Made by a program: the position numbers and the translations under genes. The notes beneath the pieces were generated by a model. That model was not told the origin of the DNA, made no database searches, and saw only the letters and a list, made by a program, of their open reading frames with translations. Below, piece by piece: positions 17,787 through 25,827 of a stretch of DNA of 64,000 nt (position 1 is the first letter of the stretch; each line of letters opens with the position of its first letter). Source of the DNA: Candidatus Zixiibacteriota bacterium (GTDB lineage: Bacteria > Zixibacteria > MSB-5A5 > GN15 > JAAZOE01); the NCBI GenBank assembly GCA_043819555.1, contig JBDREQ010000073.1, positions 224,001 through 288,000 of the forward strand, in the 5' to 3' direction.

Positions 17787-18236
17787 TTGATAATTGACTT
17801 AAAAACGGATATCGAGAGTTTAGCGGAACCTCTGATTGCTTCGGTTGGTTGTGAATTGGTGGAAACCAAACTTTCCCGATATAAGAGCGATTTCCGTCTG
17901 CAGATATTCGTTGATTCTGATAATGGCGTGACGCTTGACAAATGCGTTGAACTATCGAAGATTATAGGAGCCGCTTTGGATGTCGAGGATATTTTGGATT
18001 CCGAGTATATTCTCGAAGTTTCTTCTCCGGGATTGGATCGGCCTCTTCGCACACAACGAGATTTTGCAAGAAAAATAGGCAGAGAAATAAAAGTAGAATA
18101 TACTGAGGGCGGCAAGAAGAAAAGAATTCGTGGCTCGCTATCCGATGTGAACGATGTGGCAATAATAATTAACGGTGAAGAAGGCGAATTTGAAATCGCC
18201 CTGTCTGACATTCAGCAGGGTAAAGCAGTAATTTAG
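17787..18236 (+). CDS. rimP: Ribosome maturation factor RimP
   Basis: GVTLDKC...S, YILEVSSPGLDRPL; first gene of the nusA-infB operon; TTG start. Confidence 0.96.
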   Translation: MIIDLKTDIESLAEPLIASVGCELVETKLSRYKSDFRLQIFVDSDNGVTLDKCVELSKIIGAALDVEDILDSEYILEVSSPGLDRPLRTQRDFARKIGREIKVEYTEGGKKKRIRGSLSDVNDVAIIINGEEGEFEIALSDIQQGKAVI

Positions 18237-18249
18237 TGGAGTTAATCTA

Positions 18250-19662
18250 ATGGGATTTGATACACTGGAAGCAATGACCCTTATCGCGCGCGATAAAAAC
18301 ATTGAAATGGATTTAGTTATTGAGACGGTCGAAGCCGGATTACTTGCGGCGGCGCGAAAGAAATACGGATTTATTGATAATCTCTCCTTTAATTTCGATC
18401 ATAAGGAGGGAGAGTTGACTATGATTTCTTTGCGGATAGTCGTGGAGAAAGTAAAAGACCCCTTTACCGAAATTTCTCTCGAGGAAGCTCTCGAATTGGA
18501 TCCGGAAGCTGAATTGGATGATTTCATGGAAATCTATATTGATCCCGTTGAGGAATTTGGAAGAAACGCCATTGCATCAGCCAAACAAATCCTGATTCAA
18601 AGAATTCGTGAAGCCGAACGCGATCGTATTTATGATGAATATATCAATCGGGTAGGACAACTTGTCTCAGGCACAGTGCAGCAAATAGATAAAGGAAATG
18701 TTATTGTTAATCTTGGGCGGGCTGAATCTATCCTTCCGGTTCGTGAACAAATATCCAGAGAAAAATACCGCCAGGGCGACCGCATCCGGGCAATAATACT
18801 TGATGTGCAAAAATCGATGAAAGGACCTCAAATAATTTTATCGCGCGTTAGCACCGATTTCATTTTACGCTTGTTTGAATTGGAAGTCCCGGAAATATTT
18901 GAAAAGATTATCGAAATTCGCGCCATCGCACGCGAACCGGGCGATCGCACTAAACTGGCCGTTTATTCGGGCGATGAACGGATTGATCCCGTTGGCGCCT
19001 GCGTCGGCATCAAGGGTGTTAGAGTGCAATCCATCGTTCGTGAACTAAATAATGAACGAATTGATATCGTTGCCCACAGTTCCAATCCGGAAGTTTTTGT
19101 CGCACGGGCATTGGCGCCGGCCAAAGTAATTACAATTGATGTCTTCGATGAAGAAGTAGGTATGACCGTAGCTGTCGAAGATGATAAATTATCTCTTGCT
19201 ATTGGGAAAAATGGCCAGAACGCTCGCCTGGCATCTCGCCTGACTGGTTGGAAAATCAATATCATGTCAGAATCCGATTATAACAGGATGAAGCATGATG
19301 AAGCGGAATTGATGGTTCCGATCGGTCGACTAAGCGGCATCGGAGATGTCCTTGAAGAACGGTTGGTAGATGCGGATATAAATACGGTTAAAGATCTGGC
19401 TGAAAGTAAACTTGAAGATATAGTAAAAATTGAAGGTATTGGAGATAAAACGGCGGAAACACTAATTGAGCGTGCAATTGAGTTTATGGCCGAGCATAAA
19501 AAATCATTAAAAGAACAAAAGGCCGAAGCTGAAGCGCTGGAAAAATCCGATTCGAATTCATCTTCTGAAGCTACCGAACTTGAGTTTATGGATGATGATG
19601 ATGAGGACGAATTAGTCGACGAAGATAAAAATGAAAATGATGCATCGGATAAGGATGAGTAA
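18250..19662 (+). CDS. nusA: Transcription termination/antitermination factor NusA
   Basis: FGR.A..AKQ, S1 domain, KH domains (AREPG.RTK, DPVGACVG.KG.RV, LAIGKNGQN.RLA), HhH domain and acidic tail. Confidence 0.98.
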   Translation: MGFDTLEAMTLIARDKNIEMDLVIETVEAGLLAAARKKYGFIDNLSFNFDHKEGELTMISLRIVVEKVKDPFTEISLEEALELDPEAELDDFMEIYIDPVEEFGRNAIASAKQILIQRIREAERDRIYDEYINRVGQLVSGTVQQIDKGNVIVNLGRAESILPVREQISREKYRQGDRIRAIILDVQKSMKGPQIILSRVSTDFILRLFELEVPEIFEKIIEIRAIAREPGDRTKLAVYSGDERIDPVGACVGIKGVRVQSIVRELNNERIDIVAHSSNPEVFVARALAPAKVITIDVFDEEVGMTVAVEDDKLSLAIGKNGQNARLASRLTGWKINIMSESDYNRMKHDEAELMVPIGRLSGIGDVLEERLVDADINTVKDLAESKLEDIVKIEGIGDKTAETLIERAIEFMAEHKKSLKEQKAEAEALEKSDSNSSSEATELEFMDDDDEDELVDEDKNENDASDKDE

Positions 19663-19722: not shown

Positions 19723-22332
19723 TTGGCAGACAATAAGTCCAGAAAACGAATTTACGATATCGCTAAGGAATATAAAATTTCAAGTGATGCTTTGCTGAAA
19801 GTATTGCGCGGCCTGGGATTTATCATAAAATCTCACATGTCGATCGCGTCAAGCGATATGCTCGACGCCATTGATGTTAAATTCAAACGCGAGATAGCAG
19901 AGGTTAAAAAAGATGATGAAGCCCGCAGGCTAAAGCTGCAAGAATTGAAGTCTATAAAACGCCGAGAAGAAGCCAAGAAACTTGCACTGCGAAAACAGGC
20001 GGCAGCCAAAGCTAAAAAGAAAAAAGTGATAGCAGAGAAAAGGGCCAAAGAGCTGGCCGCCAAGGAAATTGAAAAAGCTCAGAAGATTGCGAAAACTGAA
20101 CTGCAGAAAGTAGTTGAAACGACAACGGCGAAAGAAAACATAGATAAAATTGCAATAGTTAGGACTAAAGCTGAAAAAACCGAAAAAGAGGCTGCGAAAA
20201 TAGCCGTTCCCGAACCAAAATCAAGAAAATTAGGCAAAATGGTTCGAGAGGAAGCAAGACCTGGACATGCCATGGCCGCCGCGCCAGCTAAAACCGATAA
20301 GCCTAAAACAAAAAAGGAAAGAACTGATAAACCAGTATCTCGTCATTCAATTACTTCAACTCCCGGTACCGCAAAGAAACTGCAAAAAATGCTTGATCAA
20401 CAAACAGGAGCAGGACGACCCCCCAAGAGGCGGCGTAAACGAGACAAATCAAAGAAAAGAAATGAACATCAAGTCGATACTGCTGCCGTTAAATTGTCAT
20501 TTAAGCAGACAATTGCGACTATGGATTCTGGGAAAAAGATTAAGAAGCATAAAAAACGAAGTCAGATTATGGAAGCTGGCGAGGGATTTGACGCCATTGA
20601 AGTATCGGAATTTATGACTCTCTCGGAATTGGCCAAGGCTTTTGATAAAAAACCGGCCGAACTTGTTGCCAAATGTATGGAAATGGGCATGCTTGCTTCG
20701 ATAAATCAACGTCTTGATATGGACACCATCGAAACGCTGGCTCTTGAATTAGGAATTAATATCGTTCAGAGTGAAGAAGTCGCCACCGTTACTATTGAAG
20801 AGGAAGAGGAAACTCAACTGGAACCGCGCGCCCCCGTTGTCACGATAATGGGCCACGTCGATCACGGCAAAACCACACTTTTGGATCATATAAGAAAATC
20901 TGATATAGTTTCGGGTGAAGCAGGCAAAATCACTCAACATATCGGCGCTTATAGCGTTCAAACTCCTCGAGGCAGGATTACTTTTCTCGACACACCCGGC
21001 CATGAAGCATTCTCGGCCATGCGCGCTCGCGGCGCTCAGGTTACTGATGTTGTGATTTTGGTAGTTTCCGCTACTGAAGCAGTCATGCCGCAAACAGTTG
21101 AAGCAATTGATCATGCCAAAGCTGCTAAAGTGCCAATCATGGTCGCTATAAATAAAATGGATCTGCCAAATGCTAATCCTGATTCTGTTCGCCAGCAATT
21201 AGGGAATCATAATCTTCTTGATGAATCCTGGGGCGGGAAAACAATAATGGTAGAGGTGTCGGCAAAAAGCGGAGAAGGAATAGATAAACTTTTGGAAATG
21301 GTTCTATTGCAAGCAGAAATGATGGAATTGCGTGCCGACCCAAATATTAAGGCACAAGGGACAGTGATTGAGGCCCAATTAGAGAAGGGGAGAGGTACTG
21401 TAGCAACTGTCCTTATTCGAAAGGGTTCCTTGGAAATCGGGAAACCTTTTGTGGCCGGTAACAATTTTGGCCGAATAAGAGCCATGGTTGATGATCGGGG
21501 ACGCGATCTTAAAAAAGCGGGACCTTCAACGCCGGTTATGATTACCGGAATATCAGGCGTACCTCAGGCGGGCGATTCTTTTATTGTGACGTCTTCAGAA
21601 TCAGAAGCACGCGATGTTGCTCAAAAAAGGCAGCAAATAAAACGTGAGTATGATTTACGCCGTGTCGGTACGCCGACAACACTTGAATCTATTTATGAAA
21701 AAATCAAGGATGGTCAGATCACCGATTTGAAGATTGTTATCAAAGGCGATGTTGCCGGCTCTGTCGAAGCTTTAACGGAAACTCTAAGTGGAATTGGCAA
21801 TGAAGAAGTCAGGGTCAATATTATCCGCAGCGGTGTCGGCGCCATAACCGAATCGGATGTTTTGCTTGCTGCCGCATCTGACGCCATTGTCGTCGGTTTT
21901 CATGTGACAGCCGATCCTCGTGCCCGTGAGACGGCCAATCGGGAGAAAATTGATATCCGAACCTATTCCATCATTTATGAAGTAAAAGAGAATATTACTA
22001 AAGCGATTGAGGGACTCCTCAAGCCGGAAATGGTGGAAAAATGGAAAGGTACCGCCGAAGTGCGACAGCCTTTCAAGATTCCCAAAATTGGACTTATTTG
22101 CGGTTCCTATATTCAACAGGGCAAGATGGCCCGTGGAGATAAAATACGAATTAGTCGTGACGGAGTTTTTATTCATGAAGGAACCATCGCTTCTCTCAAG
22201 AGGTTTAAAGAAGACGTAAAAGAAGTTGCGGCGGGTTTGGAATGCGGAATTGGAATAGAGAAATTTGAGGATATCCAGGTGGGCGATCATATCGAAACTT
22301 TTGAAATGGTCGAAACATCTCGGACACTATAA
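19723..22332 (+). CDS. infB: Translation initiation factor IF-2
   Basis: GHVDHGKTT, DTPGHEAF, NKMD, SLKRFKEDVKEV; SD GGAGG before TTG. Confidence 0.98.
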   Translation: MADNKSRKRIYDIAKEYKISSDALLKVLRGLGFIIKSHMSIASSDMLDAIDVKFKREIAEVKKDDEARRLKLQELKSIKRREEAKKLALRKQAAAKAKKKKVIAEKRAKELAAKEIEKAQKIAKTELQKVVETTTAKENIDKIAIVRTKAEKTEKEAAKIAVPEPKSRKLGKMVREEARPGHAMAAAPAKTDKPKTKKERTDKPVSRHSITSTPGTAKKLQKMLDQQTGAGRPPKRRRKRDKSKKRNEHQVDTAAVKLSFKQTIATMDSGKKIKKHKKRSQIMEAGEGFDAIEVSEFMTLSELAKAFDKKPAELVAKCMEMGMLASINQRLDMDTIETLALELGINIVQSEEVATVTIEEEEETQLEPRAPVVTIMGHVDHGKTTLLDHIRKSDIVSGEAGKITQHIGAYSVQTPRGRITFLDTPGHEAFSAMRARGAQVTDVVILVVSATEAVMPQTVEAIDHAKAAKVPIMVAINKMDLPNANPDSVRQQLGNHNLLDESWGGKTIMVEVSAKSGEGIDKLLEMVLLQAEMMELRADPNIKAQGTVIEAQLEKGRGTVATVLIRKGSLEIGKPFVAGNNFGRIRAMVDDRGRDLKKAGPSTPVMITGISGVPQAGDSFIVTSSESEARDVAQKRQQIKREYDLRRVGTPTTLESIYEKIKDGQITDLKIVIKGDVAGSVEALTETLSGIGNEEVRVNIIRSGVGAITESDVLLAAASDAIVVGFHVTADPRARETANREKIDIRTYSIIYEVKENITKAIEGLLKPEMVEKWKGTAEVRQPFKIPKIGLICGSYIQQGKMARGDKIRISRDGVFIHEGTIASLKRFKEDVKEVAAGLECGIGIEKFEDIQVGDHIETFEMVETSRTL

Positions 22333-22333
22333 C

Positions 22334-22615
22334 GTGATTATTGGCTGCTTGAAAGTTATGTTAAATATTCCCGCCGCACATTCACTCAAGGATAAGCGGC
22401 GGGTAGTAAAATCCCTGATTACGAGGATACATAATCGGCATAATGTCTCCGCAGCCGAAGTAGGAGAAAATGAAAGGCATCAATCCTGCCTTTTGGGAGC
22501 GGCCGTAGTATCTAACGACAGCGGTCATGCCAGCCAACGTCTCTCGGCCATTATTAATATGATTGAGCGGGAGAGCGAATCGTATATTGTTGATTATGAA
22601 ATCGAGTTGCTGTAA
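22334..22615 (+). CDS. DUF503 (YlxP-like) protein
   Basis: SLKDKRRVVKSL...NVSAAEV signature; GTG start immediately after the infB stop. Confidence 0.88.
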   Translation: MIIGCLKVMLNIPAAHSLKDKRRVVKSLITRIHNRHNVSAAEVGENERHQSCLLGAAVVSNDSGHASQRLSAIINMIERESESYIVDYEIELL

Positions 22616-23979
22616 TGAAATCGTTTAAGCGTTCCGATCGTATCGCTGATCAAATCCAGCGTGATGTCTCGGATATCGTCAGCGCTATGCTGCGCGATAA
22701 GATTGACGTGATGGTGACTATCAGCTCCGTCGATGTTTCTGACGATTTGCGTTATGCCAAAATTTACTATACCGCTCTTGGCGGAGAGAAGAAGTTGGAT
22801 GAACTAAAAGACGCTTTTGATCGGTCAACAGGGTATATCCAGAGAGAATTGGCGCAACGTTTAAGAATCCGCCGCATGCCGGAAATAACTTTCAGGTATG
22901 ATACTTCACTGGTCGAAGGAATTCGATTGACAACAAAAATTGACCGGGTAGTAGAAGAAGATATGAAAATTGGCGGCAAACAGGAAATTCATGATCCGGA
23001 AACAATTCAGAAAATAATTGAAGCTCTGGATAATTCAGGCAGCGTTTTGATCGTTGGACATATAAACCCTGACGGCGATTCAATCGGATCACAACTTGGT
23101 CTGGCCGGATATCTAAATCAAAGAAGGATTAAATACCGGATCATTAATGAAGGTGCTATCCCATTCAACTATGACTTTTTGCCCGGAGTAGAACAACTTG
23201 AGAATATCAATGATGTCGACGGTGAGGATGAATCGTTTGACACGGTTGTATTTATTGAATGTTCTGCCATTGCCCGATGCGGTAAGACAGCATCTCTAAT
23301 AGACCCTGAAAATCAAAATATTATAAATATCGATCATCATCGCGATAATGGATCGTTTGGCAAGATCAATTTTATCGACTTTGAGGCCGCCGCCGCCGGT
23401 GAGATGATTTATGATATTTTGCTTTATGCATCTGCGGAAATCACCGGTGATATAGCGACCAATCTCTATACCGCAATTGTAACCGATACCGGTCAATTCC
23501 AATATAGCTGTACTACCTCCCGGAGTTTGAGAATTGCCGCAGCTCTAATAGACAAGGGCATAGATCACATCGAAATTGTGAATAAACTGTATCATAATTA
23601 CACTCTGGAAGCTATGCGGTTGTTGGCTACGTCAATAATGAATCAAGAGTTCTACCTGGATGGCAAAGTATGTTTTATGACTATTACTAATGAGATACTC
23701 AAACAGACCGGTTCATCCAAAAAAGACACGGAGGGATTAATAAATTATTCCATCAATCTTGCCGGAGTAGTCGCTGGAGCACTGTTTAGTGAAATTTCGC
23801 CTTCCGTTACCAAGGTATCATTTCGTTCGGATAATGGCGTCGACATAATAAAAGTTGCCGCAAGACACGGAGGTGGAGGCCATCGAATCGCCTGCGGGTG
23901 CACCATTGAGGCTCCTCTGAACGAAGCCAAAATAATAATTCTATCCGATATTGAGGAATTGCTGAATGGAACGATTTGA
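22615..23979 (+). CDS. rbfA: Fusion of ribosome-binding factor A (aa ~1-115) and DHH/DHHA1 phosphoesterase (NrnA-like nanoRNase/pAp phosphatase)
   Basis: RbfA: R.DRIADQI, VS.DLRYAKIYY, R.MPEITF.YD.S. NrnA-like part: HINPDGDSIGS, IDHH, TDTG, SFRS, GGGGH. No stop codon between them. Confidence 0.9.
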   Translation: MKSFKRSDRIADQIQRDVSDIVSAMLRDKIDVMVTISSVDVSDDLRYAKIYYTALGGEKKLDELKDAFDRSTGYIQRELAQRLRIRRMPEITFRYDTSLVEGIRLTTKIDRVVEEDMKIGGKQEIHDPETIQKIIEALDNSGSVLIVGHINPDGDSIGSQLGLAGYLNQRRIKYRIINEGAIPFNYDFLPGVEQLENINDVDGEDESFDTVVFIECSAIARCGKTASLIDPENQNIINIDHHRDNGSFGKINFIDFEAAAAGEMIYDILLYASAEITGDIATNLYTAIVTDTGQFQYSCTTSRSLRIAAALIDKGIDHIEIVNKLYHNYTLEAMRLLATSIMNQEFYLDGKVCFMTITNEILKQTGSSKKDTEGLINYSINLAGVVAGALFSEISPSVTKVSFRSDNGVDIIKVAARHGGGGHRIACGCTIEAPLNEAKIIILSDIEELLNGTI

Positions 23980-24898
23980 CGGCTTGTTGCCTGTATATAA
24001 AATCTCAGGGCCGACAAGTCATGATGTTATCTATAGTCTTCGGCGCATTCTAAATCGTCAGAAGATAGGTCACACCGGTACACTTGATCCATTAGCATCG
24101 GGATTATTGCCGATTACTTTGGGAAGAGCTACAAAACTAACGCAATTCTTTACCGATTGGGATAAATCTTATCAGGCCAAAATAACCTTGGGGATAAAAT
24201 CCGATACACTCGATTCTGATGGTCATGTCACCGATAGACGAAATGTGCCGGATTTGGAAGAAGAATATCTCAAGAATATCTTAAACGGTTTTGTCGGAAA
24301 AATCGTACAAAAAATCCCTTCGTTTTCGGCGGTTAAAGTTAATGGCAAAGAACTATACAAATATGCTCGCCAGGGTATCAAAGTAGATTCACCGAATCGG
24401 GAAGTTGAAATATATTCTATAAAAATATTATCATATGTTCGACCCATCTTAAATATTCAAATTGATTGCGGCAAGGGTACTTACATCCGCGTTTTGGCCA
24501 ATGACATTGGTGACAAAATTGGTTGTGGCGCTTGTTTATCGGGGTTAAAAAGATTGCGTGCCGGTTCATTAAGAATTGAAACCGCCCTGACTCTGAAATC
24601 AGTAACTGAGCTTTTTGAAAAAGGGGAACTTGCCGATCATATCATTCCGATGAACGATGTTATTGATTTTCCGATTTTGAGCGTCTCATCCCAGGCTGAA
24701 AATACAATTAGACATGGTGGCATTCCAGATAAAAAAGAAATACTGAATTGGAATCGCGAGTTTTTACCCGGAAATTTAATCGCAATAGCCGGCCAAAGCG
24801 GCGATATTCTTGCAATCGGTAAATCAAAATGTAGTGCTGCATCACTTAATAATGGGTTTAATGACGATTATTTTTCTTATGTTAGGGTTTTGATTTGA
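23966..24898 (+). CDS. truB: tRNA pseudouridine(55) synthase
   Basis: TSHDV, KIGHTGTLDPLASG, FSAVKVNG, KGTYIR. Confidence 0.97.
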   Translation: MERFDGLLPVYKISGPTSHDVIYSLRRILNRQKIGHTGTLDPLASGLLPITLGRATKLTQFFTDWDKSYQAKITLGIKSDTLDSDGHVTDRRNVPDLEEEYLKNILNGFVGKIVQKIPSFSAVKVNGKELYKYARQGIKVDSPNREVEIYSIKILSYVRPILNIQIDCGKGTYIRVLANDIGDKIGCGACLSGLKRLRAGSLRIETALTLKSVTELFEKGELADHIIPMNDVIDFPILSVSSQAENTIRHGGIPDKKEILNWNREFLPGNLIAIAGQSGDILAIGKSKCSAASLNNGFNDDYFSYVRVLI

Positions 24899-25827
24899 GT
24901 TTTGAAGTGTATACATCGGCCGATGATTATGCCATGAAAAAGGCAGGCCCCTGCGTCGCTACCTTGGGAACTTTTGATGGATTTCACAAAGGGCATGCGT
25001 CTATATTCAGTCGTATGGTTAAAGTTAGTCAGGATATGAATCTTCCGGCAGTTCTTATTACATTTCATCCCCATCCGCGAGTTTTAATTACTCCGGATGA
25101 TCCGCCCCAGCTTTTATCTGTCCCTGATGAGAAAATTGAAATATTAAAAAACCGTTTTGATGGATCTCTGGTCTTTTTGACTTTTAACGATCGATTGAGG
25201 CGCATGTCGGCGGAAGAATTTGCAAAAAACGTTTTAATCAATAGATTCGGCGTAAAATCACTTGTTGTAGGCTATAACCATAGTTTCGGCCGAGATCGCT
25301 CCGGGAATATTGACAATCTTAAAGAAATAGGCCAGAGAGAGAATTTCGATATTCATGTTGTCGGGCCGGTAACTTATAAGGAGTTGCCAATATCCTCAAG
25401 CCGTATCAGGCGAGCAATGAAAAATGGCGAGTGGCCTGACGCAATGGCTATGCTGGGACACCAGTACCCCATTTATGGCACCGTAGTTAAGGGGCTGGGA
25501 AAAGGGAAACAATTGGGTTGGCCAACAATGAATATTGATTGGTCCGAAAGAAAGTTGCTCCCTCCCCAAGGGGTCTATTCATGTCTGGCAACAATGGATG
25601 ATATGACCTATAAAGGGATGATGTTTGTCGGAATTAATATGCTGAATCCCATGAAGAATATTTCGGTCGAGGCTCATCTGTTTGATTTCGATGAGGACGT
25701 TTATGGGAAACAGGTTACTTTATACCCTTCGCATTATCTGAGAACCAATAAGCGTTTTGAATCAACCGAAGCGTTATCGCATCAGATTGCAGATGATAAA
25801 GAAAAAATTGTAAGATTGTTATATTAA
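24895..25827 (+). CDS. ribF: Bifunctional riboflavin kinase/FAD synthetase
   Basis: [38 protein letters not shown]. Confidence 0.96.

Follow-up and report, generated by a model that had tools for sequence, protein, structure and literature searches.

Why does a bacterium carry the 30S-binding protein RbfA and an NrnA-type phosphoesterase in one reading frame, and what, if anything, would the union do? The case arises in a 64,000-nucleotide stretch of DNA from a Candidatus Zixiibacteriota bacterium (the window), where positions 22615 to 23979 of the forward strand translate into 454 codons that are open throughout, with zero internal stops. A sequence-only reading had described this rbfA-nrnA' gene as a complete RbfA, a short linker and an NrnA-like domain, and the description stands: the frame encodes 454 aa, the Pfam domains RBFA, DHH and DHHA1 each score above their cut-offs in the fused protein, and full-length homologs exist.

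Modules and active site of the fused protein

Residues 1-118 (22615..22968, + strand) form RbfA, assigned through Pfam RBFA, phmmer and the structural model with VIA; the type II KH fold is followed in the model by a C-terminal helix at residues 98-118. Then come a short coil linker, residues 119-127 (22969..22995, +; from the secondary structure of the model and junction alignments), and the fold of an NrnA-type DHH/DHHA1 phosphoesterase, residues 128-454 (22996..23979, +; Pfam, Foldseek and VIA). Pfam RBFA covers residues 6-106 (E 6.5e-27, 94.3 bits against a cut-off of 34.7), DHH residues 144-288 (23044-23478, +) and DHHA1 residues 357-440 (23683-23934, +). Among the NCBIfam models, TIGR00082 for rbfA was passed (87.9, cut-off 51.15) and the NrnA equivalog NF053633 stayed below its cut-off (141.2 versus 350); as to RecJ family membership of the DHH half, no RecJ model was among the 16 NCBIfam matches. 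The fusion shows that RbfA tolerates a C-terminal load of 36 kDa.

With 13 sequences the AlphaFold2 prediction reached a pLDDT of 82.8 and a pTM of 0.65; a 65-sequence alignment raised these to 93.3 and 0.81, the latter pTM being a single uncontrolled value. By our own arithmetic, the pTM ceiling for an RbfA part that floated freely would be 0.67-0.71, so the higher value hints at a preferred orientation between the two modelled halves. A coevolution analysis of 119 paired sequences in a reduced alphabet gave E101-T372 as the best interdomain pair (z 8.5, against 5.6-6.7 in three shuffled pairings), and the remaining real pairs lay at background. No structure chain covering both the RbfA and the NrnA parts was among the matches listed.

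The RbfA half aligned with 30S-bound S. aureus RbfA 8byv over residues 4-118 (VIA Z 13.9, rmsd 2.9, 113 aligned) and with 2dyj (VIA Z 14.2), and phmmer matched it to 1jos and 7afl_V. With RbfA as known from PF02033, TIGR00082, E. coli 7afl and S. aureus 8byv it shares the KH fold, the C-terminal helix and the kink Gly with its aromatic neighbour: S71-T72-G73-Y74 aligns with E. coli A75-S76-G77-F78, the Ala of AxG being replaced by Ser and the aromatic Phe78 by Tyr. It differs in bearing a 327-residue enzyme where a short acidic tail stands, and in a D-P-R loop reduced to Asp, as in all 14 members of the family. The kink Gly is lost in several split family members (L005, L006, L008, L013, L019), unlike the four fused ones, which retain G-Y.

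In the case of the NrnA half, the closest match was TM1595 (Foldseek E 1e-32; VIA Z 41.9, rmsd 1.9, 318 aligned), and 4ls9, 5jju and 5cet were also matched. The half has in common with TM1595 and B. subtilis NrnA the fold, motifs I, III and IV, R404 and GGGH; compared with these standalone proteins it is 26% identical, adds the N-terminal RbfA and has Glu at motif II. Motifs I, III and IV and GGGH had been called intact, and all were located in the translation: motif I as H149-x-x-P-D153-G-D155 (23059..23079, +), motif III as D240-H241-H242 (23332..23340, +), motif IV as Asp291 (23485..23487, +) and GGGH of DHHA1 at residues 420-423 (23872..23883, +), with R404 at 23824-23826 (+). Equally, the Glu reported in place of the usual Asp of motif II was recovered as Glu215 (23257..23259, +), where most homologs have Asp; it aligns with the TM1595 Asp that the inactive D80N (Asp to Asn) construct changes. 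Has the active site decayed since the fusion? Glu occupies motif II in 14/14 family loci and in 38/45 other loci of the phylum, in fused and split genes alike, so it is unrelated to the fusion and post-fusion decay was rejected. Glu215 is a phylum-level trait, and because Glu prevails across the phylum (52/59 loci) and both halves are under purifying selection (see below), it is probably a working swap.

The motif II context is mostly E-C-S/P in these loci (L001-L059). Every one of the 53 fused protein clusters described below retains motifs I, III and IV, R404 and H423 if Asp/Glu swaps are allowed; Glu replaces Asp at D153 in six of them and at motif II in five. Among 97 standalone homologs, 31 show the motif I swap from Asp to Glu. 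In RecJ of the same genome (L060:1243-2997) motif I reads G-D-Y-N-V-D, Asp being usual where this protein differs.

Genomic setting and inheritance of the frame

The window ORFs give the order rimP-nusA-infB-DUF503-[fusion]-truB-ribF-rpsO-pnp. Upstream lie rimP (17787-18236, by Pfam), nusA (18250-19662) and infB, encoding IF2 (19723..22332, +), the latter two named from their translations, and the DUF503 gene (22265..22615, +), whose stop overlaps the fusion start by 1 base and whose real start is probably further downstream than 22265. The gene truB (23966..24898, +) overlaps the fusion end by 14 bases and is a gene of its own in 14/14 family genomes; ribF (24895..25827, +) follows, with rpsO and pnp, named from translations, at its 3′ side. 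Thus rbfA sits in its expected setting, infB upstream and truB downstream, and the enzyme has infB, rbfA and nusA as neighbours, the setting given for the NrnA' clade in PMC4081065. The likeness to the infB-rbfA-nrnA' operon of that source (MSMEG_2629/2630, Rv2837c/CnpB) lies in the DHH/DHHA1 enzyme adjoining rbfA in an equal gene order; the difference is that the genes described there are separate and co-transcribed, whereas here there is one polypeptide, with Glu at motif II.

In the 97%-complete genome RbfA was matched once and DHH twice, the second time in RecJ, a separate gene of 584 aa; the fusion is the sole RbfA gene and the sole NrnA-type DHH gene. Queries with the RNase_T family and PF01612 yielded one match each, a DnaQ-like protein and a 918-aa frame, and no Orn- or NrnC-sized gene. 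Since no such gene was found and the fusion is alone of its kind, it seems to supply both RbfA and NrnA-type function, as judged from gene content. YbeY, an inositol-phosphatase/CysQ-family gene and a DAC protein are also encoded.

Could the single frame be an assembly or sequencing error? One base would separate the genes, and the reads do not reach the junction: two runs, which had small word shares (0.08 and 0.06), yielded four short fragments, 99%+ identical and all outside 22940-22990. Relatives speak for a genuine gene. Uniformly split genes in relatives had been named as the case against the fusion; instead, two relatives, 79% and 74% identical, carry the fusion. Because these two were assembled independently and are fused at exactly 454 aa, with a linker that has diverged and yet stayed open, an error at the junction is very improbable, and sequence comparison confirms a real, inherited single polypeptide. 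The frame was inherited across three genus-level relatives (74-100% identity); among the matches listed, the nearest that bears a name is a protein from candidate division Zixibacteria (79%), and RBFA, DHH and DHHA1 occur together in 13 of the best 120 of 1286 protein matches. Between the genomes of the window (G000) and of a fused relative (G001), dN/dS was 0.074/0.78 for the RbfA half (split control pair, 0.087/0.75) and 0.134/1.29 for the NrnA half (control, 0.201/0.84). Such ratios, near 0.1, indicate purifying selection on both halves, like that on the split control pair.

A probable path from overlapping genes to one frame

How do two genes become one? We read 59 loci of the phylum at the DNA level, 4 fused, 54 split and 1 without rbfA on its contig. 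Of the 54 split loci, 49 have nrnA running over the rbfA tail in the +1 frame; in each of these a start codon lies within that tail, 8-41 bases ahead of where the rbfA stop ends, and is formed mostly by Asp-Glu, Asn-Glu or Asn-Asp codon pairs. The compositional model of phase-1 overlaps outlined in PMC2542354 matches this +1 phase. Programmed +1 frameshifting in the split relatives was considered and rejected, the phase following from the ATG-making codon pairs; a simple pattern search for a conserved slippery site found an A6/T6 run in only 7 of the 49 overlaps.

Measured between the rbfA start and motif I, the fused genes span 444, 444, 426 and 420 bases, their split kin 445, 427 and 421. 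One fused gene (G012) aligns to the split genes of G003 and G009 with one single-base gap, and another (G010) to those of four split relatives, again with one single-base gap. In the window's lineage the one-base loss is only inferred, because G000 and G001 show the same one-base length difference from split G011 but their letters have diverged. These alignments place the origin of the fusion in a frame-changing indel within an overlapping gene pair rather than in simple stop loss. In the mechanism that we propose, nrnA would begin inside the acidic rbfA tail in the +1 frame, as is usual in this phylum, and a net loss of one base in the overlap would bring both genes into a shared frame and bypass the rbfA stop. 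Tolerance of the fusion would stem from the presumably variable nature of the two ends that meet, the RbfA tail and the NrnA N-terminus; the outcome would be a fixed 1:1 ratio of two proteins already co-expressed, both modules staying intact, each with its ordinary job. Judged by the junction alignments, the linker at residues 119-127 is a leftover of the former overlap between rbfA tail and nrnA start. Short gene overlaps have been tied to translational coupling, PMC10666635 treating a range of -8 to +10 as predictive; coupling may also hold here, although most rbfA-nrnA overlaps are longer than that range. Part of the value of the case lies in this traceable origin, a one-base loss in an overlapping pair repeated several times within one family.

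A simple stop-codon loss with internal re-initiation, which had been offered as an alternative, thus gives way to an indel in an overlapping pair, and the methionine on which it relied is not conserved. The in-frame ATG at 22963..22965 (+; Met117) had been noted as preceded by a weak Shine-Dalgarno sequence, and it is weak: pairing with the genome's own 16S tail amounts to -4.1 kcal/mol; in a sample of 3428 internal ATGs, 20% reach this value, and 54% of first ATGs do. The ATG is missing from both closest relatives, the position is Ile in P0002 and P0003, the G001 linker contains no ATG, GTG or TTG, and Met117 is probably not the ancestral nrnA start; alignment to standalone N-termini suggests a former start at about residue 120. 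Might the frame nevertheless give two products, free NrnA being also made by initiation at Met117 or by cleavage of the linker? The ATG sits at a plausible start site, in split nrnA genes the starts are no stronger, their Shine-Dalgarno pairing ranging from about 0 to -4, and G010 retains Met at the old start. Against this, a start codon is missing from the G001 linker and Met from P0003 and many other fusions, internal ATGs commonly pair as well as Met117, and the weak starts of split genes could use an upstream stop that is gone here. We regard two products as quite unlikely.

Recurrence and possible function

Fusion in the window's family did not happen once. The five-gene tree (14 family genomes and 4 outgroups) separates three fused lines, G000 together with G001, then G012, then G010, and makes G012 sister to split G003 with support of 99/98. 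A single ancestral fusion, with all fused members in one clade of the family, was rejected by the AU test (p=8e-5), so that on these trees the fusion arose at least three times among the 14 genomes; one gain followed by many fissions in the family is not formally excluded. On the NrnA-domain tree, with protein-only records included, the family's fused members fall into five groups. None of the trees contains mycobacterial sequence.

Among 200 genomes of the phylum 3 are fused, all within the 11 of the window's family, and fusion was found in 0/187 matched genomes of other families (2/187 being cut at the junction). Some candidates fell away: G014, G020, G026 and G096 appeared fused or long in search tables but have in-frame stops, G067 and G159 are split, and G121 and G073 are split by frame length. 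A region search with RbfA alone returned only 5 proteins, all already in the comparison set. As an observation in its own right, independent fusions are concentrated in one family (L001-L004; P0004, P0006, P0008).

The sequence-only reading had also proposed a search across genomes for the RBFA+DHH+DHHA1 architecture. It recurs: both parts were present in 53 of the best 150 clusters at 50% identity (of 53,962 matches), in several phyla. Looking up 27 of 65 fused proteins gave members from Clostridiales, Lachnospiraceae, Oscillospiraceae, Campylobacterota, Actinomycetota and Myxococcota, most fused proteins having no taxon attached, and ESM Atlas clusters with the architecture have 91, 106 and 130 members. 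In the surroundings of the Myxococcota protein, 21 loci comprised 3 fused, 14 split and 4 without an rbfA match. These proteins share the architecture with ours, with independent origins and unalike linkers, which measure 39-94 residues between fixed anchors and have no visible shared sequence between clusters. The 269-protein tree has 31 label changes, a sampling-dependent figure and not a number of origins. In a Myxococcota/Deltaproteobacteria fusion clade (L065-L067:2501-3829) the linker is conserved and contains Trp, which suggests an older, structured join. Databases label this widespread architecture as only one of its halves (RbfA in the NCBI records). We found no description of an RbfA-NrnA fusion in the open literature, where supplements could still list one; the architecture is already visible in databases.

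We consider it probable that the protein is a tolerated fusion of overlapping neighbours, two modules each with its ordinary job. The linkers are unalike, nearly all relatives keep rbfA and nrnA separate, and TruB-RibF fusions are frequent without shared function: among 68 TruB-like proteins of at least 544 residues, 49 carry RibF and 4 carry DHH/DHHA1. Functionally unrelated operon neighbours also fuse, and therefore recurrence alone is weak evidence. NrnA-TruB fusions were seen in P0301, P0311, P0314 and P0323.

Several observations fit a tolerated fusion less well. In the family, the rbfA-nrnA junction is fused in 4/14 genomes and the junctions infB-DUF503, DUF503-rbfA, nrnA-truB and truB-ribF in 0/14 each, although nrnA-truB has a +1 overlap too and is yet unfused in all 14. 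Were the five junctions equally likely, two further events would fall on the same one with a chance of about 0.04, an arithmetic on small numbers; a dispensable RbfA tail may account for the preference. The clustering of origins in one family is left unexplained by neutral fusion, and the raised pTM of the model and the Trp-bearing linker of the Myxococcota/Deltaproteobacteria clade also sit uneasily with it.

The main alternative is functional. To our knowledge, E. coli employs RbfA without any NrnA, which counts against a required partnership. PMC8177701 describes RbfA as bound in the exit channel to 16S residues 1530-1536, of which it fixes 1531-1536, and its authors raise, as speculation, "another still unknown protein", Pno1-like, in 3′ trimming; PMC9917171 has RbfA C-terminal helix 4 contacting uS7 and likewise posits a further protein, and PMC7145577 has RbfA gating the immature 30S until displaced by IF3. 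RbfA could carry the DHH/DHHA1 enzyme onto pre-30S particles, to the 3′ end of 16S, and there the enzyme would protect, position or trim the last nucleotides or clear released oligonucleotides, and the fusion would expose a partnership also holding where the genes are separate. Of this proposal, already raised in outline in the sequence-only reading, the single polypeptide stood, and the tether itself is unlikely. It draws on the extra protein posited by both groups of authors, on the rbfA-linked NrnA', described in PMC4081065 as a clade of its own co-transcribed with rbfA and linked to infB, whose member MSMEG_2630 degraded a 35-mer RNA 3′-5′ in vitro, and on the many fusions of independent origin, the preference for this junction in the family and the pTM of 0.81. 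It is weakened by PMC9757072, where B. subtilis NrnA cut only 2-4-mers, and M. tuberculosis CnpB was essentially inactive on longer RNA, as well as by the genome's own YbeY, by split relatives, by unalike linkers and by unrelated neighbours that fuse as readily. PMC9757072 also describes weak activity on pAp. Since none of the 187 genomes from other families is fused, tethering is not required.

Nob1 is the nuclease paired with Pno1 at the 18S 3′ end. A bolder version of the tether, to which we give slightly less credit still, would make the rbfA-linked DHH/DHHA1 enzyme the further protein that RbfA needs at the 3′ end of 16S: RbfA would dock it at the mRNA exit channel, and it would position or trim the last nucleotides of pre-16S rRNA. 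With the same low credence, such a partner might be, by analogy, a bacterial counterpart of Pno1-Nob1 in NrnA'-bearing lineages, and the many fusions, the junction preference and the raised pTM could, just as doubtfully, be traces of that contact. Pno1 (Dim2) is a KH protein that holds the 18S 3′ end (PMC8177701), beside a nuclease; the comparison is an analogy only, as the nuclease fold is unrelated and rRNA contact by the DHH enzyme hypothetical. If tethering were true, it would name a missing 16S 3′-end maturation factor and account for the lasting neighbourhood of nrnA' and rbfA.

A signalling link, with the DHH half acting as a c-di-AMP or pApA phosphodiesterase that ties messenger turnover to 30S maturation, seems to us improbable and well behind the tether. 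TM1595, whose structure was determined with pApA, and Rv2837c are the nearest structural matches, CnpB-type enzymes hydrolyse c-di-AMP (so CnpB in PMC9757072), and the genome encodes one DAC-domain protein; but an identity of 26% is too low to read a substrate from, and a diffusible messenger has no need of a tether.

Two side observations concern other genes: in this genome two RsgA-type GTPase genes lie above the family cut-off (G000:C20:68228-68770 and G000:C76:65383-65904), and a DnaQ-like exonuclease (L064:1177-2001, - strand) bears a C-terminal extension that looks WYL-like.
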